64,000 bases of DNA from a virus. Taxonomy: Duplodnaviria; Caudoviricetes. The stretch is from IMG/VR virus record IMGVR_UViG_3300035182_002389, positions 128,001 through 192,000 of that record; one strand, given 5' to 3'. Both the position numbers and the translations under genes were made by a program. The notes beneath the pieces were generated by a model, which did not search any database, was not told the origin of the DNA, and saw only the letters and a list, made by a program, of their open reading frames with translations. How positions within the stretch are numbered: position 1 is the stretch's first letter; each line of letters opens with the position of its first letter. This document shows positions 1-54,703 of this stretch, in pieces.

Positions 1-37
1 GCCTCATGCGGACCATTTCTACCACGAAGGGGCCTCT

Positions 38-52
38 GACTTCTGGCAAGCC
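38..52. promoter_or_regulatory. Palindromic motif GACTT-CTGGC-AAGCC
   Basis: Matches recurring G[AG]CTT-N5-AAG[CT][CT]; upstream of the membrane protein/capsid operon. Confidence 0.65.
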
Positions 53-60
53 ACCGAGGC

Positions 61-75
61 GGCTTTGCACAAGTA
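61..75. promoter_or_regulatory. Palindromic motif variant GGCTT-TGCAC-AAGTA
   Basis: One mismatch to consensus, 23 bp after the previous copy. Confidence 0.5.
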
Positions 76-205
76 CCGGCTTTTTCTCAGCAGAAAAACG
101 CGATGTCGATTTTGGTTTCGAGCTTGTTGACGAACGAATCGTCGTGCGTCTCAATGGACTCCTGACCGGACACGTTCGTCCGAAACCATCAGGGAGTTCC
201 TCTTC

Positions 206-721
206 ATGGCCTTCGACCTGAGCTTCGGCTCTCTCGGCTCGGCTCGCGACAAGCTGGCGAGCTGGCACGACGAAAACAAGCTCGCCATCAGCCGCGCGAC
301 CGCCACCGCCGAGATCGGCGCTTCCGCCTTCGGCTTCGGCTGGCTCCACGGCCGCTACCCGAAGATGGACGTGTTCGGCGTCGACCTCTCGCTGCTCGCC
401 GGCGTCGGTCTCATCGGGCTCTCCTTCCTCGACAAGAAGGAAGAGGGGGAAGGCGGCGCGTACGGCCACCACCTCGCTTCGCTCGGCCAGGGCGCCCTCG
501 CGGTGTACCTCGCCAAGCTCGGCGCGGATTGGGGCGACAGCATGAACCCCGACTCGCCGCACTACTGCGGGATGTACACGCCGAGCGCCACGGCGCCCGC
601 GCAGTTCCAGCCCAAGGTCCCGCCGCCCGCCGCGGTCAAGGGCTACGACTACGCCCACACGGGCTTCAACGTCTCGACGGCCGACATCGGCCAGATGGCC
701 CAGCGCCGTAACTGGGGCTGA
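206..721 (+). CDS. Multi-pass membrane protein, candidate major virion membrane protein
   Basis: SD GGGAG; Gly-rich hydrophobic segments (IGASAFGFGWL, LSLLAGVGLIGLSFL, LGQGALAVYLAKLG); directly upstream of the capsid candidate. Confidence 0.65.
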   Translation: MAFDLSFGSLGSARDKLASWHDENKLAISRATATAEIGASAFGFGWLHGRYPKMDVFGVDLSLLAGVGLIGLSFLDKKEEGEGGAYGHHLASLGQGALAVYLAKLGADWGDSMNPDSPHYCGMYTPSATAPAQFQPKVPPPAAVKGYDYAHTGFNVSTADIGQMAQRRNWG

Positions 722-821
722 GACCGCTTCGAGGTCGCTCTCGGGCGACCAGTGATCGATGGGACGTCGGTGGTGGTGGGGAAGCTCGCCTCGTCCAAGG
801 CAACGTGACAGGAGAATCCAA

Positions 822-1385
822 ATGAACGGTCTCATCCAGAAGTTCGGCGCGCAGAAGGCTTCGGCGGCGACGGGCGCGCCCGGCGAAGGCTGCAACGTCC
901 CCGCGCAGATGCAGCAGGCGAATGCCGCCGCGATGTACCAGCTCCGCGTCAACGGGCTGACCTCGCCGGGCCTCGCCCCCAACACGACGGGCTGCTGCCC
1001 GCCCCCGGTCGTCCTCGACGCTTCGAGCCGCGACAGCAGCGGCGCGCAGCTCACGGTCGGCGCGAACGACGTGTTCAGCGTCACCGTGCAGCTCCAGGAG
1101 CCCTTCAAGGGCAACGACTTCGTCGTGGCTGCGCAGATCGCGCAGTACTTCGAGATCATGTCGATCAAGGTCGGCCGCGACGAGCAGCTCATCTCGGAAG
1201 CCGCGATCCCCGCCGAGGTCTTCTCGTCGGCCTCGCAGCGCCAGGTCGGCCTCGACATGCTCCCCTGCCCGACGTCGAAGCAAATCTTCGTCCAGGTGCG
1301 CAACGTCGACACGCAGGCCCGCTACTTCAAGGCCGCGTTCTTCGGCTCGTGCTTCGACTGCAACACGCCGCAGATCGGCGGCTGA
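822..1385 (+). CDS. Candidate single vertical jelly-roll major capsid protein
   Basis: GGAG SD before ATG 822; about eight alternating beta segments (FSVTVQL, FKGNDFVV, FEIMSIKVG, IPAEVFS, QIFVQVRN, YFKAAFFG) in the pattern of jelly-roll capsid domains. Confidence 0.6.
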   Translation: MNGLIQKFGAQKASAATGAPGEGCNVPAQMQQANAAAMYQLRVNGLTSPGLAPNTTGCCPPPVVLDASSRDSSGAQLTVGANDVFSVTVQLQEPFKGNDFVVAAQIAQYFEIMSIKVGRDEQLISEAAIPAEVFSSASQRQVGLDMLPCPTSKQIFVQVRNVDTQARYFKAAFFGSCFDCNTPQIGG

Positions 1386-1535
1386 GCAACCGCCTCGTGC
1401 GTGAGTGGGTCGCAAGGCCCGCTCCGCTGAGATGATGCGTAGACCCTGGTTGCGCTCGACGCTCGCGAGAGTTCGAGCGTACCCGGGGCCTTCGTGTATT
1501 TGCTGCGCGCATCGACCTTTTCGCAGGAGACTTCC

Positions 1536-2462
1536 ATGACCGAAGGCTACAATCCTTTCCCCGGCTTCTTCGTCGCCGACACGATCTGCTCGCTCCAGAA
1601 CGCCGACACGAGCGGCCTCGAAGACGGCTGCCTCGCGTACGTTCGCGCGAACCAGTCCTACTACGCGTACGGCGCGTCCTTCGCGCACGCGCCCGCACCG
1701 AACGGCACGACCGTGCTCTCGACCTTCAACGGCCCGGCGGCCGTTCAGGCCGATGGCAGCCCGTGCACCGGCGAGCAGTCGCACGCACACACGGCCGGCG
1801 GCCCCGGCCGCTGGATCCTGACGACCCTCGGATACGGCGGGTTCCAGGCGCCCTTCAAGGCACGCGCCGTGCAGTCCCTCGCCGTCGCCCACCTCAACGC
1901 CGCGAGCACGAGCGCCGATGGCGTAACGCTCCTCGAAGGTGACGTCGTCCTGCTCACCGCCCAGACCCCCGGGACCGATAACGGCCCCTACGTGGTCGGT
2001 CCGGTCGTCGGCCCCGCCGCTCCGCTCACCCGCCCGTTCTGGTGGAGCCCCGACACGGTCATCCCGTCCGGGACCGTCATCGAAGTCGGCGGCGAAGGCA
2101 CGCTCTTCAAGAACAGCTCGTGGAAGGTCACGGGCGCCTCGTTCGTCGTCGAGACGGGCGGCCCCGGCCTGTTCCCGCAGAACCAGCGCTACACGGGCGC
2201 TCTCGGAGCCGGCGATCTGTTCCTCGACGGAAGCGGAGCCTCGGGCCACCACGACATCGGCCTCTACATGACCGCGGACGCCTCCGTCCAGGTCACGCGC
2301 AGGGCGTTCTCGGGCGCTCTGCTGACGGTCGAGTACGAGGTCCTCGTTCAGATGCCGGGTCAGCGCGGCGCCGCGGCGCTCCGCATCCAGGCCCAGCAGG
2401 CGGACGGGTCGCTCAGCAACTACGACGTCAGCACCCTCTCCGTCCTCGTCAACAACTGGTGA
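1536..2462 (+). CDS. EGYNPFPG-family paralog 1; N-terminal module plus fibre/spike-like C-terminal domains
   Basis: MTEGYNPFPG...GCLAYV...STFNGP...GRWIL, then a DGVTLLEGDVVLLTAQT..NGPYVV segment of the type common in phage fibres. Confidence 0.65.
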   Translation: MTEGYNPFPGFFVADTICSLQNADTSGLEDGCLAYVRANQSYYAYGASFAHAPAPNGTTVLSTFNGPAAVQADGSPCTGEQSHAHTAGGPGRWILTTLGYGGFQAPFKARAVQSLAVAHLNAASTSADGVTLLEGDVVLLTAQTPGTDNGPYVVGPVVGPAAPLTRPFWWSPDTVIPSGTVIEVGGEGTLFKNSSWKVTGASFVVETGGPGLFPQNQRYTGALGAGDLFLDGSGASGHHDIGLYMTADASVQVTRRAFSGALLTVEYEVLVQMPGQRGAAALRIQAQQADGSLSNYDVSTLSVLVNNW

Positions 2463-2544
2463 TCGACGGAGGCGATTGCCGAAGGTGATCGCCTACGCGG
2501 CGGAGAACAAGGGTTCGTGTTCGGACCCTCGTTTTCCCCGCTGC

Positions 2545-2559
2545 GACTTGTCGCAAGCC
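2545..2559. promoter_or_regulatory. Palindromic motif GACTT-GTCGC-AAGCC
   Basis: Intergenic; TAGAAT -10-like hexamer at about 2587. Confidence 0.7.
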
Positions 2560-2635
2560 GTGCTTCTTCATTTGCCCCAAGCGGAGTAGAATCTGCTCTA
2601 CTGAGGGCGCAACCCTTTCGACGGAGATCAGCACC

Positions 2636-2983
2636 ATGCCCAACGAAGGCTTCAATCCGTTTCCCGGCTTCGTGCACGCAGACAGCACCTGCGCGCTCCA
2701 GAACGTCAACACCGACGGCCTCGACATCGGCTGCCTCGCGAAGACGCCCCAGATCCAGCAGCGCGCTCCCGGCACGCTGGACGGCTGCACCTACTGGCGC
2801 CTCGACGAGACAGACCCGCCGCTCAGCGTCGACGGCAACGACGTGCTCGCGACCTACAACAGCGGCATGCCGCTCGACGGCGCGGCCCACCCGTGCACCG
2901 TCGTCGAGCCGAGCGCGCACAGCCTCCGCGGCACGCAGCGCTGGATTCGCCTCAACATCTACGACGTCGCGTCCGACCTCTAG
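2636..2983 (+). CDS. EGYNPFPG-family paralog 2 (stand-alone module)
   Basis: MPNEGFNPFPG..TCALQN..DGLDIGCLA..ATYNSG..H..RWIRL. Confidence 0.75.
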   Translation: MPNEGFNPFPGFVHADSTCALQNVNTDGLDIGCLAKTPQIQQRAPGTLDGCTYWRLDETDPPLSVDGNDVLATYNSGMPLDGAAHPCTVVEPSAHSLRGTQRWIRLNIYDVASDL

Positions 2984-3075
2984 TCCACATCCGTCAGCGC
3001 CGACGGACCCGTCGCGTCGGCGCTGGCGGACACGCTCTGCAACATCTTCATCCGGTCTTCCTCTCGGAGCGCGCC

Positions 3076-3441
3076 ATGAACGAAGGTTACAATCCGTTTC
3101 CGGGGCTCGTGTACGCGCCGGACGTTTGCACGCTCCAGAACTTCAACACCGACGGGATGATCAGCGGCTGCCTCGCGTCCACCCCCGATCCCCGAAAGAG
3201 GCTCGGGCCTTTCGGGCCGACCCTCCACAGTTGGTTCTACCGCTTCTGGTACCCGACGACCGAAGATGCGTTCATCATGCCCGAGGTAAACGGGTGGAAC
3301 GTTTTTTCGACGTACAACGGACCGGAAGGCCAGAACGACGGCGACCCGTGCCCGGTGCTGCCGAAAGGCATCAACGCGCACACGGCCTCGGGACCTGCGC
3401 GGTTCATCCGACTCAACATCTGGGACGTCTTCGGCTACTGA
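3076..3441 (+). CDS. EGYNPFPG-family paralog 3
   Basis: MNEGYNPFPG..CTLQN..GCLA..STYNGP..HTASGPARFIRL; GGAG SD. Confidence 0.75.
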   Translation: MNEGYNPFPGLVYAPDVCTLQNFNTDGMISGCLASTPDPRKRLGPFGPTLHSWFYRFWYPTTEDAFIMPEVNGWNVFSTYNGPEGQNDGDPCPVLPKGINAHTASGPARFIRLNIWDVFGY

Positions 3442-3474
3442 TCGTTCAGAGCCTGCGCAGCCGAAGAAAGCACC

Positions 3475-4254
3475 ATGAGCGAAGGATACAACCCGAATCC
3501 CGGCTTCTTGTCCGTCGACACGACGTGCGAGTTGCAGGCAAAAAGCATCGACGGGCTCGATGAGGGCAGCGTCGCGTTTGTGCGCGAAGACGTCTTCGTC
3601 CCTTGGATCGACGCAAGCCCTGACAGCGGCCCCTACCACTACTACCGCCTCGCGTTCTTCACGTTCCCCGAGTTCCCGTTCTTCAAGGTCGGGCCCATCC
3701 CAAGGTCGTTCAGTCCGAAGGCGGCCGGCGCGAAGACGGCCGGCGCGAAGACCGCTCCTGCGGCTCCTTTCGTTCGGTATTCCGACTACCAGCGAGCCAT
3801 GGAGAAGGCAGCCTTCGACGTCTACAGCGCCGCTGTCGACGCCTTCGAGAAGGTCAACCCGGAAGCCGCAACCAAGATCCGTGCAAAGATGACGGCCAGC
3901 GCTGCTCTCGCTGCGACCAAGCCTTCCGCGAAGACTCCGAAGAACCCGCTGACCGCAAAGCGCGCCGCGGCCCAAGCGCCTGTCACCCCGCCCCTCGGCG
4001 CGACGGGTCCGAAGCAGCTTCTCACCAACCCCAAGCAGAGTCTCATCGATCCGCCTGCGGACCCGAGCCTCTGGACCTATGCGCCGTGGCCGGACGGATC
4101 CAGCATCCTCGCAACCTGTGCGAGCGGGCCCGCGCTTCAGCAAGACGGCGAAACCCTCTGCGGAAACGGCGTCGGCGAAGCTTCGCTGCAACGCTACGCC
4201 GGCACGAGTCGCTGGCTTCTGATCAGCGTCCAAGACGCCATCCTGTTCGACTAG
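3475..4254 (+). CDS. EGYNPFPG-family paralog 4 with an internal Ala/Lys/Pro-rich insertion
   Basis: MSEGYNPNPG..TCELQ N-half and ILATCASGP..SRWLLI C-half, separated by more than 100 low-complexity residues. Confidence 0.7.
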   Translation: MSEGYNPNPGFLSVDTTCELQAKSIDGLDEGSVAFVREDVFVPWIDASPDSGPYHYYRLAFFTFPEFPFFKVGPIPRSFSPKAAGAKTAGAKTAPAAPFVRYSDYQRAMEKAAFDVYSAAVDAFEKVNPEAATKIRAKMTASAALAATKPSAKTPKNPLTAKRAAAQAPVTPPLGATGPKQLLTNPKQSLIDPPADPSLWTYAPWPDGSSILATCASGPALQQDGETLCGNGVGEASLQRYAGTSRWLLISVQDAILFD

Positions 4255-4309
4255 GACCGCGTCGTTCGACGACGCTCACGATTCACGTTCAACCATCGGA
4301 GAAGAGAAC

Positions 4310-4705
4310 ATGCCGAACGAAGGCTTCAACCCGTTTCCCGGGTTCATCAACGCTGAGACGACCTGCGACCTCCAGGCGGCCAACACCGACGGTCTGCAAG
4401 AGGGCTGCCTCGCCTTCGTGCGCACGCCGATCATCTTCGAGAACGACCCGAACCTCGGACCGTTCCACTACTACCGCTACACCACCATCGACACCGTGCT
4501 GACCCCCGCGCTGCCCGTCGACGGCGTGCTCGTGCTCGCGGCCTACAACAGTCAGCCGGCTCGCCAGCAGCCCTCGCTGAGCCCCTACGTCCCGGGCAGC
4601 GTCGGCGCTCTCTGCGCCCCCATCCCCGATCAGGTCGACGCGCACCAGCCCGGCCCGGCCCGCTGGATCCTGGTCGACATCAGCGACTTCACCGTCGCGC
4701 CCTGA
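4310..4705 (+). CDS. EGYNPFPG-family paralog 5
   Basis: MPNEGFNPFPG..TCDLQ..GCLAFV..AAYNS..HQPGPARWIL. Confidence 0.75.
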   Translation: MPNEGFNPFPGFINAETTCDLQAANTDGLQEGCLAFVRTPIIFENDPNLGPFHYYRYTTIDTVLTPALPVDGVLVLAAYNSQPARQQPSLSPYVPGSVGALCAPIPDQVDAHQPGPARWILVDISDFTVAP

Positions 4706-4758
4706 TCGCCTTCGGCGACCCGCCCCTTCCACGACTCACCCGTCACGGAGAAGAAGAC

Positions 4759-5109
4759 ATGACCGAAGGCTACAATCCGTTTCCCGGCATCATCGTCGTG
4801 GAAACCACCTGCGAGCTTCAGAACACCGACACGAGCGGTCTCGATGACGGCTGCCTCGCGTACGTGAAGACCAAGGGCGCCGGCCTCGCCGTCGACTTCC
4901 ACTACTTCCGCCTCTACGACTACCGCGTCGGCGCACCGCCCCCGAACGGCACGACGATCCTGTCGACCTACAACGGTCCGCCGTCCGTTCAGCAGGGGAT
5001 CAACTGGAACACCGCCGGCGCCGTCTGCGCGCAGCAGGGCGACGCGCACCACGCGGGCGGCACGGTCCGCTGGATCCTGACCGACATCATCGACAACGCC
5101 AACGCCTGA
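4759..5109 (+). CDS. EGYNPFPG-family paralog 6
   Basis: MTEGYNPFPG..TCELQN..GCLAYV..STYNGP..HHAGGTVRWIL. Confidence 0.75.
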   Translation: MTEGYNPFPGIIVVETTCELQNTDTSGLDDGCLAYVKTKGAGLAVDFHYFRLYDYRVGAPPPNGTTILSTYNGPPSVQQGINWNTAGAVCAQQGDAHHAGGTVRWILTDIIDNANA

Positions 5110-5160
5110 CGTTCGGCAACGCGCTGCCTGCTTGATACCGACGCGCCTTCGGAGAAGAAC

Positions 5161-5514
5161 ATGAGCGAAGGGTACAATCCGTTTCCCGGTATCATCCAGG
5201 CAGCGAGCCGTTGCGAGCTTCAGAACACGGTCACCGACGGACTCGACGAAGGATGCCTCGCGCGCATCACGCCTGACGACGACGATCGGAACGGCTGGTT
5301 CTACTACCGCTACTACGCCCTTCGGGACGGAGAGGCTTCTCCGCAAATCGACGGGTATTTCGTGCTGTCGACGTACAACGGGCCCGAAGCCAAGTTCCGA
5401 GAGAACGGCGATTTCGCCTGGCGCACCGTTTCGTGCCCCGACCAAGGCCCCGCACACAGCGACCTCGGGCCGGGCCGCTGGATCCTGACGAACATTCAGG
5501 ATTTGGACTGGTGA
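5161..5514 (+). CDS. EGYNPFPG-family paralog 7
   Basis: MSEGYNPFPG..RCELQN..GCLA..STYNGP..HSDLGPGRWIL. Confidence 0.75.
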   Translation: MSEGYNPFPGIIQAASRCELQNTVTDGLDEGCLARITPDDDDRNGWFYYRYYALRDGEASPQIDGYFVLSTYNGPEAKFRENGDFAWRTVSCPDQGPAHSDLGPGRWILTNIQDLDW

Positions 5515-5733
5515 ACGCGGGCGGTCTCGGGCCGCCCGTCCACTGACGAGGGATTCTTCAAGGGGCGTCCGAGGGGTGTTTCTCCCGTCCACCCCCATCA
5601 CCCGAGACGCTCCGCGTTCGGGCAAATCGGCGGGCCTTCCGGTCCCCCGCTCTCTTGCCCGCGCGCGAAACCTCGGCCGTCCCTTGAAGGACCCCTCGCC
5701 GATCTTCCACCGCATCCGCAGGACCCCCACTCG

Positions 5734-6144
5734 ATGTTCTTCCCGCGCGTGATCCTGACGCTCTTCAACGGCGAGTACGATCGGGACCTCGGCGAGCGCG
5801 CCGTCTTGCACCTGCTCGACGCGCTCGTCGCCATCGACGAGGACTACCTCCGTCGCCACCCCGAGATCCCGAAGCTATACGCCTCGGGCGTGCGCTACGA
5901 ACGGCAGAAAGGCGACCAGGAAGACTGGCACGACATCCCGACCACCATCTCCATCGGCAAGAGCGACTGCAAGGTCCTCGCCGCGTGGAGGTGCGCCGAG
6001 CTGCGTCTGCAAGGCATCGCCGCCGTGCCGACGCTCTTGCGTCAGCCGACCAAGACCGGCCTGTACCTCTACCACATCCAGGTCCGCTACCCGAACGGGT
6101 ACATCGAAGACCCGAGCGTCATCCTCGGCATGGCGCCTCCCTGA
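5734..6144 (+). CDS. Transglutaminase-like cysteine protease (candidate maturation protease)
   Basis: Cys-His-Asp order: SDCKVLAAWRCAEL ... YHIQV ... IEDPS. Confidence 0.65.
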   Translation: MFFPRVILTLFNGEYDRDLGERAVLHLLDALVAIDEDYLRRHPEIPKLYASGVRYERQKGDQEDWHDIPTTISIGKSDCKVLAAWRCAELRLQGIAAVPTLLRQPTKTGLYLYHIQVRYPNGYIEDPSVILGMAPP

Positions 6145-6161
6145 ACTCCCACACCGGCGCC

Positions 6162-6176
6162 GACTTACGGTAAGCT
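6162..6176. promoter_or_regulatory. Palindromic motif GACTT-ACGGT-AAGCT
   Basis: Intergenic, about 10 bp before ATG 6187. Confidence 0.75.
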
Positions 6177-6186
6177 GAGGACCGCC

Positions 6187-7848
6187 ATGAATCCCCTCCT
6201 GCTCCTGCTCGTCGCCGGTGGTGCTGCCGCGGTCTACGCCTTCACGAAGAAGAAGGCCACGCCCACGAGTCTGCCCGTCGACACGACGCCCATCGATCTC
6301 ACGTTGGGCAAGCAGGGTACGGCTCTCACGATCGATTCCCACCGGCCACCTCCGCCTCCGCCTCCGCCTCCGCCTCCGCCTCCGCCTCCGCCTCCGCCTC
6401 CGCCTCCGCCTCCGCCTCCGCCGGCCATCCTCGCGCCGCAGGCGCTCGACGACGCGCAGAAGCAGAGCCTCTTCAAGCGTCTGCCGGACATGGTCATGGT
6501 CACCGACCCTGCGAGCGGACCGCTGGCGCACAGGGTCAGCCTGCGCGACAACGCCAACAAGAGCCGAATGGGTGGCGAGCTGTTTCCGGCCGTCTTCAGT
6601 GACACGCTCGCGACCATCGTCACGCGCACGGACGATCCCGGCGGCATGGAGGTCGAGTTCGTCGATATGCCGACCGCGGCCGTGCTTGTCGCGCCCGGCA
6701 GCCGATGGTTCCTCTTCCTCAAGCCGGGCGAGGCCAAGACGCTGACCGCGCTGCCGGGCATGCCTTCGCTCGCGAAGCCTCCGACCCCGGAAGAGATCGC
6801 AGCCGCCAAAGCAGCGGCCGACAAGGAGGCCTCGGACAAGGCCGCGGCCGACAAGATCCTTGCGGACAAGGCTGCCGAGGACGCCGCTCAAGCCGCTCTG
6901 CTCGCTGCCGAGGCCGACAAGATGGCCGCCGAGAAGGCCGCCGCCGACGCCGCTGCTGCCGCCAAGGACGCCGCTGGCAAAGCAGCCGCTGCCGAGGCCG
7001 CCAAGCGCGCGTCCATGAGCTACGCGGACGCGACGCAGGACCTTCACATCAGCTCCTTCATCGTCGATGGGCTGCCCGCCGTGCCGTGGAGCGATTGGAC
7101 GAAACAGATCGCCGATCAGCTCCAGGCCGCCGGCTACACGACGGCCGCCAACGTGCTGTACGCAAAGTCTCCCGAGGCGGCTCAGAAAATCGCAGACGAG
7201 ATTGCCGCGAAAGCTGCCATGGGCGTCGGCGAAGCGGGCGACGCGCTCGGCTACCCCATCACCATCATCTTCGATCTGCTCTCCGGCAAGGACCCGGCGC
7301 AAGCCCTCGAAATCTCCAACAAGATGCGGGATGCAGGCTACACGGCCGCGGCCGACACGCTGTACGCGACGACGCCCGAATACGCCACGGCGCAGCGCGC
7401 CAAGATGTACATCATCGACGTGGGCGCCAACGAATATGCGGTCTTCCGAGGCACGAACATCGGCGCCATGCTCGCTCTCGCCGATCAGCTCGCGACCAAG
7501 GGATACGTCGAAGCTTCGGAGCAGCTTTTCGCACGGGCCGACAGTCTCGGATGGTTCCCGAAGAGCAACGACCATCCCCTGCGCATGACGGTCGACGACA
7601 TGACGGGCCGGAGCGCGCCGGCAGGACTCTTCGACGGGTCCTACGCGAGCAAGCAGCTCTCGATTGCAGGCGTCAACCTGCTCAGCCTCATCGACATCGT
7701 TGGCGCCCTGCGCAACCATCAGGACGCGGCCATCTCTTCCGGGAACAAGTACGCCGGGATGTTCGAGAACGCTGGGTATCACGTCGCGGCAAGGCAGCTT
7801 CTCGACCTGACCGCATCGCTCGTGCATCTGTTCGCTGCCGGCGCGTAG
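6187..7848 (+). CDS. N-terminally anchored virion membrane protein with poly-Pro, PGSRWFLFL module, AK-rich stalk and four GY.AA helical repeats
   Basis: MNPLLLLLVAGGAAAVYAFTKKK anchor; paralogous segments shared with 7885 and 9245. Confidence 0.75.
   Translation: MNPLLLLLVAGGAAAVYAFTKKKATPTSLPVDTTPIDLTLGKQGTALTIDSHRPPPPPPPPPPPPPPPPPPPPPPPPPPAILAPQALDDAQKQSLFKRLPDMVMVTDPASGPLAHRVSLRDNANKSRMGGELFPAVFSDTLATIVTRTDDPGGMEVEFVDMPTAAVLVAPGSRWFLFLKPGEAKTLTALPGMPSLAKPPTPEEIAAAKAAADKEASDKAAADKILADKAAEDAAQAALLAAEADKMAAEKAAADAAAAAKDAAGKAAAAEAAKRASMSYADATQDLHISSFIVDGLPAVPWSDWTKQIADQLQAAGYTTAANVLYAKSPEAAQKIADEIAAKAAMGVGEAGDALGYPITIIFDLLSGKDPAQALEISNKMRDAGYTAAADTLYATTPEYATAQRAKMYIIDVGANEYAVFRGTNIGAMLALADQLATKGYVEASEQLFARADSLGWFPKSNDHPLRMTVDDMTGRSAPAGLFDGSYASKQLSIAGVNLLSLIDIVGALRNHQDAAISSGNKYAGMFENAGYHVAARQLLDLTASLVHLFAAGA
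6349..6420 (+). repeat. (CCTCCG)12 microsatellite encoding part of a ~26-residue poly-proline tract
   Basis: Read directly from the sequence. Confidence 0.95.
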
Positions 7849-7884
7849 CCATCTGCGCCAGCCTTACGGTACACTGGAGACACC

Positions 7885-9042
7885 ATGAACCCCCTGCTCC
7901 TCGTTCTGATCGCTGGCGGCGCTGCTGCGGCCTACTTCCTCACGAAGAAGTCGACGCCCGTCGCCGACACGACCGGGCAGCCGGCGCAGCCCGATCAGCC
8001 TGTCACGCCCCCGGGGCCTGCTGTCAAGCCGAAGCCGGTCGCCGTGCTTCCGCAGGCGCTCGACGCGGGGCAGCGCAGCGCGCTCTACAAGTCCCTTCCG
8101 ACGATGGATCTCGTGGACGGTCCGACCAAGACGCCGTCGAACGCGTCCGGGACCATCGCCGTCTCGAAGATCAGCCTCAAGAAGAACGCCATCTCCAGCG
8201 AGGTGCGCACCGACGCGTTCCCCATCATCGCTTCGGCGAACCTCGGCGGCCCCGACGGCAAGGCGCACAAGACGACCATCCTCGCGACCATGACCAACGA
8301 ACCTGGCGGGATGGAGATCGCCGCAGTCGACGGCGCCGACCTCGCGCGCTCGATGCTGCTGCCGGGCAGCCGCTGGTTCCTCTTCATGGAACCGGGGCAG
8401 GCCACGACGCTCTCGAAGGAAGCGGGCGCGCCTGCCATCCCCGCGAACCTTCCGCCCATCGTCATGCCCGACACCGGCGCCCCGAAGCAGGCGCTCACAA
8501 ATCCGCTCACGAGCAGCAGTCACATCTCGAAGGACAACATCGTCTTCAAACCGATCTTCCTCATCCACGGACTGATCGGCGACAAGGCCAACACTCCGCT
8601 CGCTGACATCCCGGGCCCCACGGGCATCAACGCGCGCGCTGCCGCGACCCGCTCCGACTCGGCCTCGATGGTCACGTGGGCCGACCAGCTCATCTCCGAG
8701 GGCTACACCAAGGCCGCCCAGGCGCTCTTCGATCAAGCCTACGCGATCGGATGGCGGGCATCGCCGACCGATCACAAGGAGCGAATGATTCTCGGCGACA
8801 TGCTCGACGCGAGTGCGCCGAACTACGACGCGGCCTACATCGCAGACGGCGTCGTCTTCAGCAATGCGGGCGACGGATCGTTCAACCTCGACGATCTTCG
8901 CGCGCTCGTCTACGCGGCGAAGACCGTGCCTCTGCCGACGCAGGTCGGCCCGCTCAACGACGCTGCGGCGAGCTTCCTCGCTGCTGGCTACACGGGCCTC
9001 GCGGGCGAGCTGAGCAACCTCGCCAAGAGCATCGTGGGCTGA
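7885..9042 (+). CDS. N-anchored membrane protein, paralog of 6187
   Basis: MNPLLLVLIAGGAAAAYFLTKK; PQALD; PGGMEI..PGSRWFLFMEPG; two GY.AA repeats. Confidence 0.75.
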   Translation: MNPLLLVLIAGGAAAAYFLTKKSTPVADTTGQPAQPDQPVTPPGPAVKPKPVAVLPQALDAGQRSALYKSLPTMDLVDGPTKTPSNASGTIAVSKISLKKNAISSEVRTDAFPIIASANLGGPDGKAHKTTILATMTNEPGGMEIAAVDGADLARSMLLPGSRWFLFMEPGQATTLSKEAGAPAIPANLPPIVMPDTGAPKQALTNPLTSSSHISKDNIVFKPIFLIHGLIGDKANTPLADIPGPTGINARAAATRSDSASMVTWADQLISEGYTKAAQALFDQAYAIGWRASPTDHKERMILGDMLDASAPNYDAAYIADGVVFSNAGDGSFNLDDLRALVYAAKTVPLPTQVGPLNDAAASFLAAGYTGLAGELSNLAKSIVG

Positions 9043-40863: not shown

Positions 40864-41628
40864 ATGATCACGCCCATCGTCAAGCCCGACGTTCTGCCCG
40901 ATCCGGTTCCGGGTCTTGCGCCCTCCGTTCCAGGGTATCGGCGCTTCCCTGCCTCGAACTTCGTTCCCCGAGGGGGATTCGCAAACCAGATCACCGTCGA
41001 AGGACAGATTCTCGACGCCAACAAGCAGCCCGTCGCAGGCTCCTCCTACGACGCCATCCTGTACCTGCTCATCGACGGCATTTGGCGACAGGCAGGAAAG
41101 CCCGTCACAAACATCGCGGGCGGAAGCGGGCCGCAGCCCGCGCTTGGATCGGGCAGGGGATACACGTCCGCGCGCGTCGTCAGCTTTCTTTACGGGGGCA
41201 TCGTCGATGTTGCCGCCGAGGGCTACATTCAGGTCGTCAACATCGTCCCGCTCACCGGCGTCTCGATGCTCTTCAAGGTGCAGAGCCCCGAACCTTCTGC
41301 CACCGTTTCTCGAAGCCTCTCTGGCGCACCGGAGGTATCCCTCGCTCCGCCTGCGACCTGGAAGACGCTGCCCACGTTCGTGAATGCTGGCGCTCTCGGT
41401 CCTCTCGTCCCCGTTCCTACGCCGGTCGAGCAGTACGTTCTCCTTCAAGCGGACGCTGGCAACCCGGGCCAAACCGTCATCGTTAGCCAGGGCATCGGCA
41501 GCCTCAGCCAAGGCTTCGAGCTTGCTGCTGGCAAATCTATCCAGTGGCCGACGCGCGACGCCGGCAACATCTACATCCTCACCGACCAAGCGGCGGGCGC
41601 CATCACCATCCGCGTGACGAGGTTCTAA
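40864..41628 (+). CDS. Beta-rich two-domain structural protein, paralog B
   Basis: IVKP.V..DP.P..PGYR.FP..NF.P.G..A.QI..EGQIL shared with 40068. Confidence 0.65.
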   Translation: MITPIVKPDVLPDPVPGLAPSVPGYRRFPASNFVPRGGFANQITVEGQILDANKQPVAGSSYDAILYLLIDGIWRQAGKPVTNIAGGSGPQPALGSGRGYTSARVVSFLYGGIVDVAAEGYIQVVNIVPLTGVSMLFKVQSPEPSATVSRSLSGAPEVSLAPPATWKTLPTFVNAGALGPLVPVPTPVEQYVLLQADAGNPGQTVIVSQGIGSLSQGFELAAGKSIQWPTRDAGNIYILTDQAAGAITIRVTRF

Positions 41629-41630
41629 AC

Positions 41631-43121
41631 ATGCCCGTTTCCCGATCGGCCAAACTTCCCGTCGTCGAAGCCAAAAACAAGAAGGCTCCCACGGCCTCCA
41701 ATCCCGCGCTCGAACCTGCGCGAACGATTCCCCTCGCCATTGGGGGACCTCCCGTTCGCGGACCTGTCGGCGAAAAAGGTCTGGTCGGCGAGCGAGGGGC
41801 AAAAGGTCTCCTTGGCGACAAAGGACCCAAGGGCGACGCGGGGCCTCTTGGCTCTCCCGGACCCAAGGGCACGATCGGCGACAAGGGGCCGAAAGGTCCG
41901 CTTGGCGATCCTGGGCCGATCGGTCGGCAGGGGCCTGAAGGCGTGCAAGGCCCGAAGGGCGTTCAAGGACCCGTCGGCTCTCCAGGACCTATCGGGCCCG
42001 CGGGCAAAGAAGGGCCTACCGGACCGAAGGGCGAGATAGGCGCTCGCGGAGACAAGGGGCCGATGGGCGACGTCGGTCCCCAAGGTCCCCTCGGCTCGCC
42101 AGGACCCAAGGGCGACAAGGGGCCGGCCGGCGACAGGGGGGCGGTCGGGGACAAAGGGCTGATCGGCGACAAGGGGCCGATCGGTGACAAGGGGCCGGTC
42201 GGTGACAGGGGGGCGGTCGGGGACAAAGGGCCGATCGGCGACAAGGGGCCGATCGGTGACAAGGGGCCGGTCGGTGACAAGGGGCCGGTCGGCGAGCAAG
42301 GTCCGCAAGGTCCGCAAGGTCTCCGAGGCGAGCAGGGCCCTCTCGGCGACGGGGGGCCGATCGGGGACAGGGGGCCGATCGGGGACAAGGGCGCCACCGG
42401 CGACCAAGGCTCCACCATCCTGTTTCCCGCGACGCGACGAGCCTTCCAGGGCGCTTCGCACGTCTACTACCTCGACGAGTCTGCGCTGCCGCTCAAGAAC
42501 GCCGCAGGGCCCGACGGCATTCTCACCTCCGACGAGCCGAAGGGGCTCATCTTCCGCGACACGTCCCTCTTCAACCGAGGGACGCCGGCGCTGCGCATCC
42601 AAGGGCGCACCCCTTCACAGGGTGTCTACTCGACCGACGTCAACGCAGACGTGAGCCGTGGCGCCACACTCGAAGTCGTCTTCGAGCCGAGCGAGATGAC
42701 CCCCGACGTTCGGTGGATCGCCGAGCTGATCGGCGTCATCCCCCAGGGCGGCAAGCTCAACGCGTTGTCCATCGCGTTTTTCCCGAACACCCTGCGAGCC
42801 CAAGTCATCCTCGGAGGCGTCAGCGGCGAACACGCGCAGTTCACCGCCAGCGTCCCCTGGACCAACGGACGACGCACGGTGTTTGCGCTCAGGTTCGACC
42901 CCGCTCGCGGTACGCTCGACGCCATCCTCAACGGATTCGTCGAGTCCTCTGTCGCGACCCGTGGAATCATCGAGGTCCCGCTCTCTCAAATCGCCATCGG
43001 GCGCGCCATCAACAAGAGCGCGGCCTCGTGGAAGGGCACCATTTCCGAGGTCCGCTTGACCCCGTTTGCACAACCTGACGAATACTTCGTCGAAGGAGTG
43101 CGCGCGATGGGCTTGCTGTAG
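41631..43121 (+). CDS. Collagen-like fibre with C-terminal LamG/ConA-like domain
   Basis: About 72 uninterrupted Gly-X-Y triplets, then a beta domain ending IAIG..WKGTISEVRL. Confidence 0.85.
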   Translation: MPVSRSAKLPVVEAKNKKAPTASNPALEPARTIPLAIGGPPVRGPVGEKGLVGERGAKGLLGDKGPKGDAGPLGSPGPKGTIGDKGPKGPLGDPGPIGRQGPEGVQGPKGVQGPVGSPGPIGPAGKEGPTGPKGEIGARGDKGPMGDVGPQGPLGSPGPKGDKGPAGDRGAVGDKGLIGDKGPIGDKGPVGDRGAVGDKGPIGDKGPIGDKGPVGDKGPVGEQGPQGPQGLRGEQGPLGDGGPIGDRGPIGDKGATGDQGSTILFPATRRAFQGASHVYYLDESALPLKNAAGPDGILTSDEPKGLIFRDTSLFNRGTPALRIQGRTPSQGVYSTDVNADVSRGATLEVVFEPSEMTPDVRWIAELIGVIPQGGKLNALSIAFFPNTLRAQVILGGVSGEHAQFTASVPWTNGRRTVFALRFDPARGTLDAILNGFVESSVATRGIIEVPLSQIAIGRAINKSAASWKGTISEVRLTPFAQPDEYFVEGVRAMGLL

Positions 43122-52571: not shown

Positions 52572-52629
52572 TCGGGAAAATGCTCGAATGGCGTTCGGGG
52601 TTGCTGCGTCGCTGCGGCAACGGGTGCAG

Positions 52630-53010
52630 ATGATGGCCGTCGGAGGGGTCCTTGCCGCTTTGCTCCCGTGGGCGCTCGCCGTCTTCGGGCTGACCGTGAT
52701 CATTGCGATCTCGCGCGTCATGCGGCCCCTCCGGCGGCTCTTTCGCCCCGTCGCGCCCGACGGCGTCACCGAGCTGCCCGTTGGCCGCGTCCGCGCGTTC
52801 TTCGGCCATCTCATCCACTGCTGCATGTGCGTTGGAACCTGGGTTGGGTTCGTCTACGCCCTCCTGGGCTTCCAGATCATCCCGGAGCTTCCTCGCCTTG
52901 GCGTCATCCACATTCCCGGGCTCCACTACGCGCTCAACGCGTTCGCCGCAACGGGTGTATGCTGGTGCCTGCACGTGATCCTCACCAGGCTCGGCGCCGA
53001 CAAGCTCTAG
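52630..53010 (+). CDS. DUF1360-like membrane protein
   Basis: TM segments around LIHCCMCVGTWVG; start uncertain (52588 or 52630). Confidence 0.6.
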   Translation: MMAVGGVLAALLPWALAVFGLTVIIAISRVMRPLRRLFRPVAPDGVTELPVGRVRAFFGHLIHCCMCVGTWVGFVYALLGFQIIPELPRLGVIHIPGLHYALNAFAATGVCWCLHVILTRLGADKL

Positions 53011-53065: not shown

Positions 53066-54703
53066 ATGACCGAAGGCTACAATCCGTTCACAGGCTTCTT
53101 CCTGTCGCCGAACCTCTGCTCCTTGTCCAACGAGGACACGAGCGGCCTTCAGAACGGCTGCCTCGCGTACGTGGAGGATGTCAACCGCTACTACCGCTAC
53201 GCGGCCAACGGGACCGACGCGCCGCTCGACGGCGTCTACGTGGTCTCGACGTGGACGGGCCCCATCAACCCGGGCTGCGACCCGCTGCCGCCCGGCCTCA
53301 ACGCGCACGGTACCGACAAGCCGCGATGGGTCCTCACCAACCTCGCCGACGCGATCGGGACCACGGCCAACTCGACCAAGTGGTTCATCGACGCCGTCTT
53401 CGGCAACGACAACAACATCGGCACCGTCCCGAGCAAACCGCTCCAGACGTTCCGCGAGCTGGGTCGGCGCTGGAGGAACGGCGCGACCTACAACACCGAC
53501 TACATCTTCGTCACGATCCTCTCGGATCACTTGCTCGACGACGACGTCATCGACATCTGCCGACCGCTCGGCGACCCCAACCAGAGCCAAAACTTCCCCA
53601 TCATCATCCAGGGAAAGCGTCAGGATCCTGTCAGTTCCGGCGTCATCGGACCAGTCTCGGTCGGCGTCTACCACGCCGCTCCCGTGTCTCCTGGCATCGC
53701 AGCCGGAGGCCACGGCGTTCTGCTCGACATCGGCGCTCTCGGCGCGGCGTATCCGAACAGCTTCCTGCAAATCACCCGCCCCGGCGTTCTCCTCAATGCG
53801 TGGATGTGCTTGGTCGGAGTCTACAACTCCGGCACACCCCCGCTCGACTACTCGACTCCCATCGTTCTGCAAGCGGTCGCTCCGTCGCCTGCCATCCCAC
53901 CGGACCCCGCCCTCAACCAAGACTCTCCCGTTCCAGGCGACACCTTCAACGTTCTCGGGGACGGATGCAGCATCCCCGACACCATCGTGCTCGACATTCC
54001 GTCGTTCGCCGAGGTCTGGTTCTACGACGTCGAGCTGCGGCAGGGGACGCCCACCACGCCGACCGCCGTGCAGAACCTTCAGTCTGGCGCGATGCGCTTC
54101 TACCGTTCTTCGGGATCCTCGGCGAATCCTGCACGGCTCTACACCGGGCCGAACTCCCAGGTGTCCCTCTACTTCATGGGGAGCACCACCAAGGACATCC
54201 AGGTCCTCATGCGAAACCCGGCCACCTCGGCCGGACAAAGCAGCTACTCGATCAGCGGCGGGCTTCGCCTGGACGCTTCCCTCTACGACAACAATCAGGG
54301 CATCGACGCCAACGCCGTCGACTTCTGGAACGATTCCGTCTTCGCGCCAGGCGCCTACGTCACCCTCCAAAGCGGGCGCATCCTCACGGTCGTCGACCTG
54401 TGGATCCAGTACAACGTCGCAACGAGCATCCGCAGCTCTGGCGGCGTCATCTTCTTCAACAACGCGCTCTACGGCAGCGGCAACCTTGCCGACATCATGC
54501 AACTCGGCGAGTACACCAAGGGCGTGTACAGCAGCGCTGCGCAACTCACCGTCGCTGCCAACCTTGGCGCCGCTCAATCGGGCGGCATCAACTACCTCAA
54601 CGGCGTCTCGAAGACGTTCGTTCCCGCCGACCTGCCGTTCGTCTCCATCGCCACAGGTGCCGACTCGCAATCCGGCATGATCAAGCGAGGCGGCGGCATC
54701 TAA
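53066..54703 (+). CDS. EGYNPFPG-family paralog 8 with long beta-helix-like spike C-terminus
   Basis: MTEGYNPFTG..CSLSN..GCLAYV..STWTGP..H..PRWVL, then WFIDAVFGNDNN.G..KPLQTF (start-of-tailspike-type motif). Confidence 0.75.
   Translation: MTEGYNPFTGFFLSPNLCSLSNEDTSGLQNGCLAYVEDVNRYYRYAANGTDAPLDGVYVVSTWTGPINPGCDPLPPGLNAHGTDKPRWVLTNLADAIGTTANSTKWFIDAVFGNDNNIGTVPSKPLQTFRELGRRWRNGATYNTDYIFVTILSDHLLDDDVIDICRPLGDPNQSQNFPIIIQGKRQDPVSSGVIGPVSVGVYHAAPVSPGIAAGGHGVLLDIGALGAAYPNSFLQITRPGVLLNAWMCLVGVYNSGTPPLDYSTPIVLQAVAPSPAIPPDPALNQDSPVPGDTFNVLGDGCSIPDTIVLDIPSFAEVWFYDVELRQGTPTTPTAVQNLQSGAMRFYRSSGSSANPARLYTGPNSQVSLYFMGSTTKDIQVLMRNPATSAGQSSYSISGGLRLDASLYDNNQGIDANAVDFWNDSVFAPGAYVTLQSGRILTVVDLWIQYNVATSIRSSGGVIFFNNALYGSGNLADIMQLGEYTKGVYSSAAQLTVAANLGAAQSGGINYLNGVSKTFVPADLPFVSIATGADSQSGMIKRGGGI

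Follow-up and report, generated by a model that had tools for sequence, protein, structure and literature searches.

A narrow family of spike N-terminal modules in an uncultured 202-kb virus includes a tandem array of stand-alone copies with a predicted tailspike-like trimeric fold

Why should a virus carry a row of small genes that repeat the N-terminal module of its long, spike-like proteins with no distal body attached? The question is raised by positions 1536 to 5514 of a 64,000-nucleotide stretch of DNA (from here on the window, meaning that whole stretch) taken from a bacterial virus assigned to Duplodnaviria, Caudoviricetes. The window corresponds to bases 128001-192000 of the IMG/VR virus record IMGVR_UViG_3300035182_002389, a linear record of 202,518 bp with a CheckV completeness of 94%. 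A preliminary description, made from the sequence alone, had noticed seven related genes in tandem and an eighth 48 kb away, and had read them as a capsid-docking module used as an interchangeable plug and expanded next to the capsid gene. The reading that we favour, to which we give about an even chance of being correct, is that of a shared N-terminal homotrimerising attachment domain of a multi-spike set, accompanied by diversified minimal stub spikes.

We built a profile hidden Markov model (HMM) from seven modules and searched it against the six-frame open reading frames (ORFs) of the whole record. Ten matches were obtained, with E values from 4.7e-20 to 3.8e-46, and the next one lay at E 0.78. 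Given the ten matches and the clean gap that follows them, the similarity is far beyond chance and spans the whole module of about 110 amino acids (aa), so the paralogy extends well past the first 10 aa. All eight genes of the preliminary description were confirmed at their positions, and a further two copies are located beyond the window. The module is about 105-130 aa long, and the family of ten comprises four long members (308, 376, 529, and 545 aa), five bare ones (115-131 aa), and one whose module is split (259 aa). The five bare copies and the single insert-bearing copy are thus as first described, whereas the long members are four in the genome and not two, the additional pair being outside the window.

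The array opens with g1536, a long member on the plus strand (1536..2462, 308 aa) with the module in residues 1 to about 105. It is followed, on the same strand, by five bare copies and the insert-bearing one, which we name by their start positions: bare 2636 (2636..2983, 115 aa, HMM E 6e-44), bare 3076 (3076..3441, 121 aa, very divergent and with the longest branch of the module tree), insert-bearing 3475 (3475..4254, 259 aa, with C32 replaced by Ser), bare 4310 (4310..4705, 131 aa, with the longest loops), bare 4759 (4759..5109, 116 aa, the copy that we modelled and predicted as a trimer), and bare 5161 (5161..5514, 117 aa), the last of the array. A GGAG-type ribosome-binding site (RBS) stands 6-10 nt before the ATG of every gene of the array. 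The insert of 3475, about 150 aa long and rich in Ala, Pro, and Lys, lies in the variable loop region and splits the HMM match into positions 1-55 and 59-111.

The other long members are 53066 (53066..54703, plus strand, 545 aa), in which the module is followed by a beta-helix-like body, a type kept in all relatives found, and the two copies outside the window, P0002 (genome 86220->84634, minus strand, 529 aa) and P0001 (genome 84564->83437, minus strand, 376 aa), which adjoin each other. Each of the four distal bodies, like the insert of 3475, is unique in the genome, where a search found no second copy. The distal bodies look like spikes or fibres, considering the beta-helix-like model of 53066, the phrog_2647 domain of g1536, and the phrog_20787 C-terminal tip of P0001. 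More precisely, residues 113-206 of g1536 matched phrog_2647 "head decoration" (E 9e-11) together with virion and tail-fibre PHROGs, and the last 47 residues of P0001 matched phrog_20787 "virion structural protein." No match of phrog_2647 to the module itself or to any bare copy was found.

Conservation is uneven along the module. The mean pairwise identity among the nine own modules is 62% over residues 1-36, 25% over residues 37-96, and 48% over residues 97-110, and so the variable part is indeed central, as the preliminary description had it. The N-terminal peptide MxEG(Y/F)NPFPG is strongly conserved, and 6 of the 17 positions invariant among the nine own copies (E3, G4, N6, P7, F8, and G10) fall within residues 3-10. 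Across 22 modules from this genome and its relatives, G10, C18, L20, G31, G64, C90, and R104 are invariant, and P7, C32, L33, A34, R51, V67, and W105 nearly so. With C18 and C90 invariant and C32 nearly invariant, the conserved cysteines are three; their conservation had been recognised at the outset, but as a simple pair.

The bare copies differ from the long members also in the size of their loops. The first variable loop is 13-19 aa long in bare copies versus 7 aa in all four long members, and the C-terminal RW motif is found at residue 102-118 in the former versus 87-92 in the latter. They end a few residues past the conserved strand RW(I/V)(L/R)xx(I/L)xD, the point at which the distal body starts in the long members; identity between the paralogs is only 36-57%. 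By these sequence features, the bare copies form a subfamily with expanded loops and are not a spike module simply cut short. A diversity-generating retroelement was considered as the source of the loop variation and set aside: no reverse-transcriptase family was among the results listed, and the paralogs differ over their full length.

Then, we evaluated the predicted fold of the module. The AlphaFold2 model of bare copy 4759, obtained from a 9-row alignment, had a mean predicted local distance difference test score (pLDDT) of 65.7 and a predicted template modelling score (pTM) of 0.64, with residues 1-6 below a pLDDT of 50. Using VIA-align, independently of Foldseek, we compared this model with each of 48,161 representative PDB chains. 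Z>=2 was reached by only 42 chains, and ranks 1-14 comprised nothing but tailspikes and depolymerases of phages and the tailspike-like enzyme WceF (Z 4.2-7.0); all of these aligned at the small domain immediately before the beta-helix. The matches include Fri1 gp49 of an Acinetobacter phage (residues 204-272; Z 7.0, 67 residues, 3.0 A), Kp7 gp52 of a Klebsiella phage (residues 14-82; Z 6.0), K1 lyase 7w1c (residues 10-66; Z 5.9, root-mean-square deviation (rmsd) 1.5 A), CBA120 TSP2 (residues 253-329), Depo32 (residues 202-268), CBA120 TSP4 (residues 499-563), and AS12 gp42 (residues 16-84). The next matches after rank 14 were the trimerisation domains of collagen XV and XVIII, at Z 4.0.

The other structural searches returned similar names. 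The best 15 rows of Foldseek against PDB were all tailspikes or tailspike-like enzymes, and in BFVD the named best matches (E 0.012-1) were nearly all phage tailspikes, tail fibres, and related beta-helix proteins, about half of the rows being nameless. The Atlas's own model of this bare copy matched proteins with a Phage_tail_beta domain. Placing weight on the specificity of these lists over the scores, the modelled module resembles the pre-beta-helix domain of tailspikes at the fold level, which we do not take as homology. For the full-length model of 53066 (pLDDT 58.9), matches at E 1.5e-4 to 7.6e-4 were found among beta-helix glycosidases, together with the K1 lyase tailspike, but with template modelling (TM) scores of only 0.12-0.19; the model thus weakly fits a spike made of a small N-domain plus a beta-helix.

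Homo-oligomerisation, which the preliminary description had proposed to check by modelling, is supported by the prediction for a bare copy. Three copies of 4759, modelled with a 22-row alignment, gave interface scores (ipSAE) of 0.91/0.91/0.89 versus 0.00 for the best of three controls, with a pLDDT of 88, and so the trimer passed the mark used; in calibration, run with two copies and the tool's own alignments, 20 of 30 solved homo-pairs attained the same mark, as did 1 of 23 single chains. The confident predicted interface is formed by residues 9-13, 29-37, 43-51, 65-67, 83-84, and 106-116, which are largely family-conserved stretches. The prediction supports trimerisation of the module.

To place the module among known proteins, its profile was searched with HMMER against 1.84 billion representative proteins. 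Nineteen proteins were found at E<=0.001, about half of them from this genome. The foreign matches were the bare P0011, the truncated P0018, a frameshifted copy of g1536 (P0005), and seven long proteins of 377-551 aa; six of these seven are orthologs of the 53066 spike, and the seventh, P0015, has a body like that of P0001. The more distant relatives found carry the module at the head of spikes of 377-519 aa. No Pfam match at E<=1 was obtained for the module or any member, and no PHROG match for the module, PHROG matches being limited to distal parts. With a bare copy as the query, tblastn found no match in 50,697 records of cultured phages, and blastn of window positions 1-8000 against the same records gave four short matches only (about 130-190 bp at about 70% identity). 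A pattern scan of IMG/VR found no relative, and an Atlas search by features gave no usable match. As far as these searches reach, the module is a new and very narrow sequence family.

The few relatives allowed us to follow the array and the spikes between genomes. The bare tandem array is seen, with its reading frames open, in this lineage and in two close relatives. L028, a 1-kb contig of the NCBI metagenome assembly GCA_041643055.1, contains three bare copies in tandem; its P0011 is an ortholog of 4310, and it probably holds an ortholog of 2636 too. In L034 (Ga0315287), the end of a 2636-like copy, ortholog of ours, is followed by a 4310-like and then by a 4759-like copy. Blastn of L034 matches window positions 2783-3049 and then 4236-5093, with 3050-4235 cleanly absent; given this jump from 3049 to 4236, L034 is without exactly genes 3076 and 3475. 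Copy number, for which the preliminary description had looked to relatives, therefore differs among them. The G+C content at third codon positions (GC3) is 0.83 in 3076, 0.80 in 3475, and 0.77 in 5161 versus 0.91-0.94 in neighbouring genes, and two of these three copies are those missing in L034. The array sequence was identical in contigs of four microbial-mat/sediment runs, two of which may be the source of this DNA, with no structural variant.

The long members vary in their own way. L044, from a co-occurring strain (JGI metagenome 3300035661), is 99.6% identical to the genome of the window and carries at L044:3121-3221 (about position 2100 of the window) a 19-nt deletion in g1536, after "...TVIPS," which frameshifts the body and leaves a 252-aa product and a 64-aa ORF. 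In L035, the orthologs of P0002 and P0001 stand side by side after a Gly-rich fibre gene, and at L035:4243-7287 the N-module on the P0001-type body is almost the same as the one on the P0002-type spike next to it, an arrangement which, from the sequences, is a module swap or a gene conversion between spike bodies. The same contig lacks the two genes that separate the Gly-rich fibre from P0002 in our genome (genome 86271-89013). In a distant lineage, P0014 (53066-type body) and P0015 (P0001-type body) have a common module variant, MSxVxP(Y/F)PGFL..., with support 93/87.

On the module tree, the nine bare modules plus g1536 are separated from the other long members, although the support for this split is weak (66/41). 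The label bare or long is clustered on the tree, requiring two changes, and none of 500 shuffles gave as low a number. The L034 orthologs of 4310 and 4759 have 90% and 86% aa identity to our copies, with ratios of nonsynonymous to synonymous substitution rates (dN/dS) of 0.48 and 0.90, respectively. For the three bare copies compared with L034, the values were 0.90, 0.48, and 0.76 (pairwise Nei-Gojobori, 68-130 codons, few substitutions), and for the P0002 and P0001 modules compared with L035 they were 0.30 and 0.28 (pairwise Nei-Gojobori), a contrast which is only suggestive because the pairs differ greatly in the synonymous rate (dS).

In the reading that we favour, the module of about 105-130 aa would be the N-terminal homotrimerising attachment domain of the spike and fibre proteins of this virus, and would correspond in structure to the small domain by which the beta-helix of phage tailspikes is preceded. 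All ten proteins have the conserved N-terminal peptide, unstructured in the monomer model, together with the conserved core of the predicted trimer. Since the peptide and the core are common to all, the ten could plug into the same kind of virion socket, like the "conserved peptide" or anchor of multi-spike phages. That the module is a docking element is suggested by the conserved unstructured N-peptide, by the lineage-specific co-variation of the module among bodies, and by the observed module swap. With four different distal bodies, of which one is a beta-helix-like spike and the others resemble fibres, the particle would be able to recognise several receptors.

The tandem bare members would have arisen within the array, probably from a g1536-like gene, ending exactly at the domain boundary. 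They may be minimal stub spikes, that is, small trimeric knobs in the same sockets with their longer, fast-evolving loops exposed, possibly to ligands; the copy number of the bare members changes between close relatives. Adhesion, occupancy control, and decoy are the candidate roles for the bare copies themselves. The idea of an interchangeable attachment module put forward in the preliminary description is retained here, given a self-contained N-terminal unit on four different bodies with some copies bare, the tailspike-like fold, the predicted trimer, and the swap in a relative; what the data leave unsupported is the capsid-gene context that came with it.

Several results weigh against a shared spike attachment domain. 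The structural resemblance is modest, with a maximum Z of 7.0, and a Z below 8 can reflect a common arrangement only; Foldseek of the 4759 model against PDB and BFVD gave no match at E<=0.001. Confidence was moderate for the monomer model (pLDDT 65.7) and poor for the 53066 spike (58.9). At the sequence level, the module has no link to any tailspike family: Pfam and PHROG gave nothing for it, and the PDB profile search with the 53066-type spikes gave a single weak match, to CBA120 TSP1, at E 0.024 and over 41 aa only. The high dN/dS of the bare copies (0.48-0.90), with the lower GC3 of three copies, would also fit relaxed constraint.

A further point of this kind is that neither a docking partner nor a branching adaptor nor a recognisable virion scaffold was found. 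We scanned 155 proteins of at least 140 aa with PHROG, and 84 of them, from the second half of the genome, with Pfam; the best 25 families per scan were listed, so that weak matches may be hidden. Among the families listed, none was a capsid, portal, terminase, tube, sheath, or baseplate family, a single or double jelly-roll capsid family, or a penton family. The same holds for a T4gp10-like branching adaptor, for which no specific search was made. Direct searches of the record with Phage_capsid PF05065, Terminase_6N PF03237, Terminase_6C PF17289, and Phage_portal PF04860 gave no match, and neither did the search for an FtsK_SpoIIIE PF01580 packaging ATPase. As the genome is very divergent, these family-search negatives do not show that a tail is absent. 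The 187-aa neighbour of the array, which had been called the capsid protein (the "822 protein"), has no Pfam or PHROG match; its look-alikes in the Atlas form about 100 clusters of proteins of about 190 aa without names, mostly from viruses labelled Uroviricota. Its identification as a capsid protein is not upheld.

Relaxed constraint would be natural if the bare copies were decaying leftovers of former spikes, with their distal bodies deleted and persisting for a while without function, an example of this kind being the 69-aa truncated second receptor-binding protein (RBP) of the Klebsiella phage KpV767. Besides the dN/dS of the bare pairs (0.90, 0.48, and 0.76 versus 0.28-0.30 in the long-spike modules) and the GC3 of three copies (0.77-0.83 versus 0.91-0.94 elsewhere), the absence of two copies from L034 agrees with decay, a natural deletion of 19 nt, which cuts short the g1536 body of a co-occurring strain, illustrates how truncation can begin, and RBPs that are truncated yet retain the conserved peptide have been described (PMC6872550). 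However, the five bare copies are intact, each with its own RBS and with the same end at the domain boundary, the conserved trimer-interface residues and the three Cys are kept in all of them, and the loops are systematically longer, not eroded. Bare arrays are still open in two diverged relatives, and the paralogs, being only 36-57% identical, appear to have been maintained over a long divergence. We consequently regard decay as unlikely. We regard as similarly unlikely that the bare trimers are made without being permanent parts of the virion and act in the infected cell, as competitors setting the number of long spikes, as helpers of socket assembly, or as decoys for a defence that senses the spike N-domain. 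Because the N-peptide and the interface are common to both, bare copies could compete for the partner of the long spikes; a copy of the putative regulon palindrome at 2545 (see below) suggests control separate from g1536, and fast evolution with copy-number change is typical of conflict genes. No defence or anti-defence signal was found, none having been looked for, and the array lies among genes taken for structural, which speaks for a virion role, though these genes have no family match, and the present evidence does not separate this role in the cell from stub spikes.

A last alternative keeps the module on the particle and moves it to another site: it would bind the capsid shell, at vertices or facets, near the 187-aa jelly-roll-like protein, as a decoration or vertex-fibre system of a tailless virus similar to the fibres of adenovirus or PRD1, rather than attach to a tail or baseplate. 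The array does follow directly the gene of this 187-aa beta-rich protein, the g1536 body matches a PHROG labelled head decoration, and no tail, portal, or terminase family was listed among the 155 proteins or found by the direct family searches. Nevertheless, the 187-aa protein is only a putative capsid protein, with nameless look-alikes from viruses labelled Uroviricota; no single or double jelly-roll capsid family was listed and no FtsK-type packaging ATPase found; and every structural match of the modelled module is to tail-borne spikes. Moreover, missing HMM matches in a very divergent genome do not show that the tail is absent. Docking on the shell is thus improbable in our view, and we return to the attachment domain of a multi-spike set with its stub spikes.

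Compared with the pre-beta-helix domains of tailspikes (Fri1 gp49, Kp7 gp52, K1 lyase, CBA120 TSP2, and Depo32), the module has a similar predicted fold (Z 5.1-7.0 over 57-69 residues, rmsd 1.5-4.8 A) and is likewise predicted to be trimeric. As in Kp7 gp52, K1 lyase, and AS12 gp42, it is located at the very N-terminus of a spike that may be beta-helix-like. Unlike those domains, it has no detectable sequence similarity to them, it has three conserved Cys, and its bare subfamily has long variable loops. Its occurrence also as stand-alone genes in a tandem array is seen in none of the matched tailspike entries, and in six members (the five bare ones and the copy with the insert) no distal body follows, unlike in the spike-borne pre-helix domains.

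A second comparison is with the anchor-branch phages that mount several RBPs, for which we considered Klebsiella phages of the KP32, KP34, Menlow, and PhiK64-1 groups, K1-5/SP6, and CBA120 (Latka et al. 2019, PMC6872550; PMC13352976). In Klebsiella phages, RBPs share N-terminal docking peptides, and occasional truncated RBPs keep only that peptide (PMC6872550); shared docking peptides and truncated RBPs are described also in PMC13352976. As in these phages, the putative RBPs of one genome have here a common, lineage-specific N-terminus and differing distal parts (ten genes, four unrelated bodies), and the type of N-module co-varies across the bodies of a lineage (P0014/P0015, from contigs, and the L035 swap). 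Truncated members consisting of the N-terminus only and the exchange of modules between bodies are further common traits.

The differences concern the size and the use of the common part. Here it is a whole folded domain (by prediction) of about 105 aa plus the peptide, versus 7-50 aa in the anchor-branch phages, and the truncated members are numerous, conserved across relatives, and diversified in their loops. No T4gp10-like branching protein or anchor was recognised among the families listed, and this virus has no recognisable tail genes among the families listed for the 155 proteins, unlike those phages. A partial likeness can be drawn also with the adenovirus fibre and PRD1 P5, in that a putative trimeric fibre has a short conserved N-terminal peptide proposed to dock on the particle; its aromatic-N-P-aromatic-P motif recalls the tail of the adenovirus fibre. 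Unlike those viruses, ours has no penton-base or jelly-roll capsid family listed, and the modelled fold of the module matches tail-borne spikes.

The best-supported reading is that the module and its stub array are a variant of the multi-RBP docking logic, in a new sequence family. The current models of how host range is built, and of how it can be engineered, are phages in which several RBPs are mounted through a common docking element at the N-terminus; the locus would extend this logic to an uncultured virus of 202 kb that is very divergent. What appears to be new is that the docking element is a whole folded trimeric domain (as predicted), belonging to a new sequence family, and that this domain has been set free as a tandem series of stand-alone genes, variable in copy number, whose loops are enlarged and evolve fast. 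Provided that the particle does carry the stubs, no smaller ligands of the spike type would be known, and loops could be displayed on them as on a natural scaffold. For a lineage whose virion has no recognisable structural hallmark, the family is also a point of entry, as whatever binds the module would belong to the attachment apparatus.

A bolder proposal would be that a lineage of mat and sediment viruses of about 200 kb, lacking any recognisable Caudoviricetes hallmark and possibly tailless, uses a tailspike-type trimer as a universal plug, and that an expandable stub array with hypervariable loops provides a combinatorial, fast-changing surface for adhesion or evasion. This we consider rather doubtful; if true, it would be a virion-surface diversification system without described equivalent.

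As for the rest of the genome, the G+C content of the window is 60-69%, and its genes read mostly on the plus strand. In the PHROG scan, the first half of the genome contained replication and nucleotide-metabolism genes; the second half holds lysins, peptidoglycan-binding domains, GDSL lipases, PLD, a lectin, a collagen-repeat protein, and a DnaB-like helicase. A tail could be suspected from PHROG matches labelled "tail protein" and "tail fiber" (phrog_819 and phrog_6320), but all those traced belong to the one collagen-repeat protein (window 41544-43118, 525 aa, Pfam Collagen E 1e-32), and the labels vanish from the list once this protein is left out. Being traced to the collagen repeats of one protein, they are not evidence of a tail.

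The 15-bp palindrome GRCTT-N5-AAGYY has 35 matches in the window (from 38 to 63918, both strands counted) versus 0.59 expected from shuffles. From this recurrence it looks like a genome-wide regulatory site, a function that we infer. One copy lies at 2545..2559, between g1536 and the first bare gene and 77 nt upstream of the latter, where the bare array may begin to be transcribed as a unit of its own; another is found at 6162-6176, after the array.

Upstream of the array lie the genes of a 171-aa protein and of the 187-aa beta-rich protein discussed above. In L044, these two are preceded by a 130-aa antisense gene with a DUF2604 (PF10790) match (L044:857-1249), a position just upstream of the start of our window. 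The 53066 spike gene is preceded by a gene for a DUF1360 membrane protein (window 52588-53010), and the contigs of P0014 and P0015 both carry a neighbouring DUF1360 gene; as the pairing of a DUF1360 gene with a spike gene that bears the module is seen here and again in two more distant lineages, the gene pair is conserved. Finally, an 800-aa protein encoded at genome 8853-11255 (L012) matched phrog_2426 at E 8e-152; it is about 32% identical, over 94% of its length, to a "vWA-containing protein" of Ackermannviridae and other phages, and 503 phage records match it.

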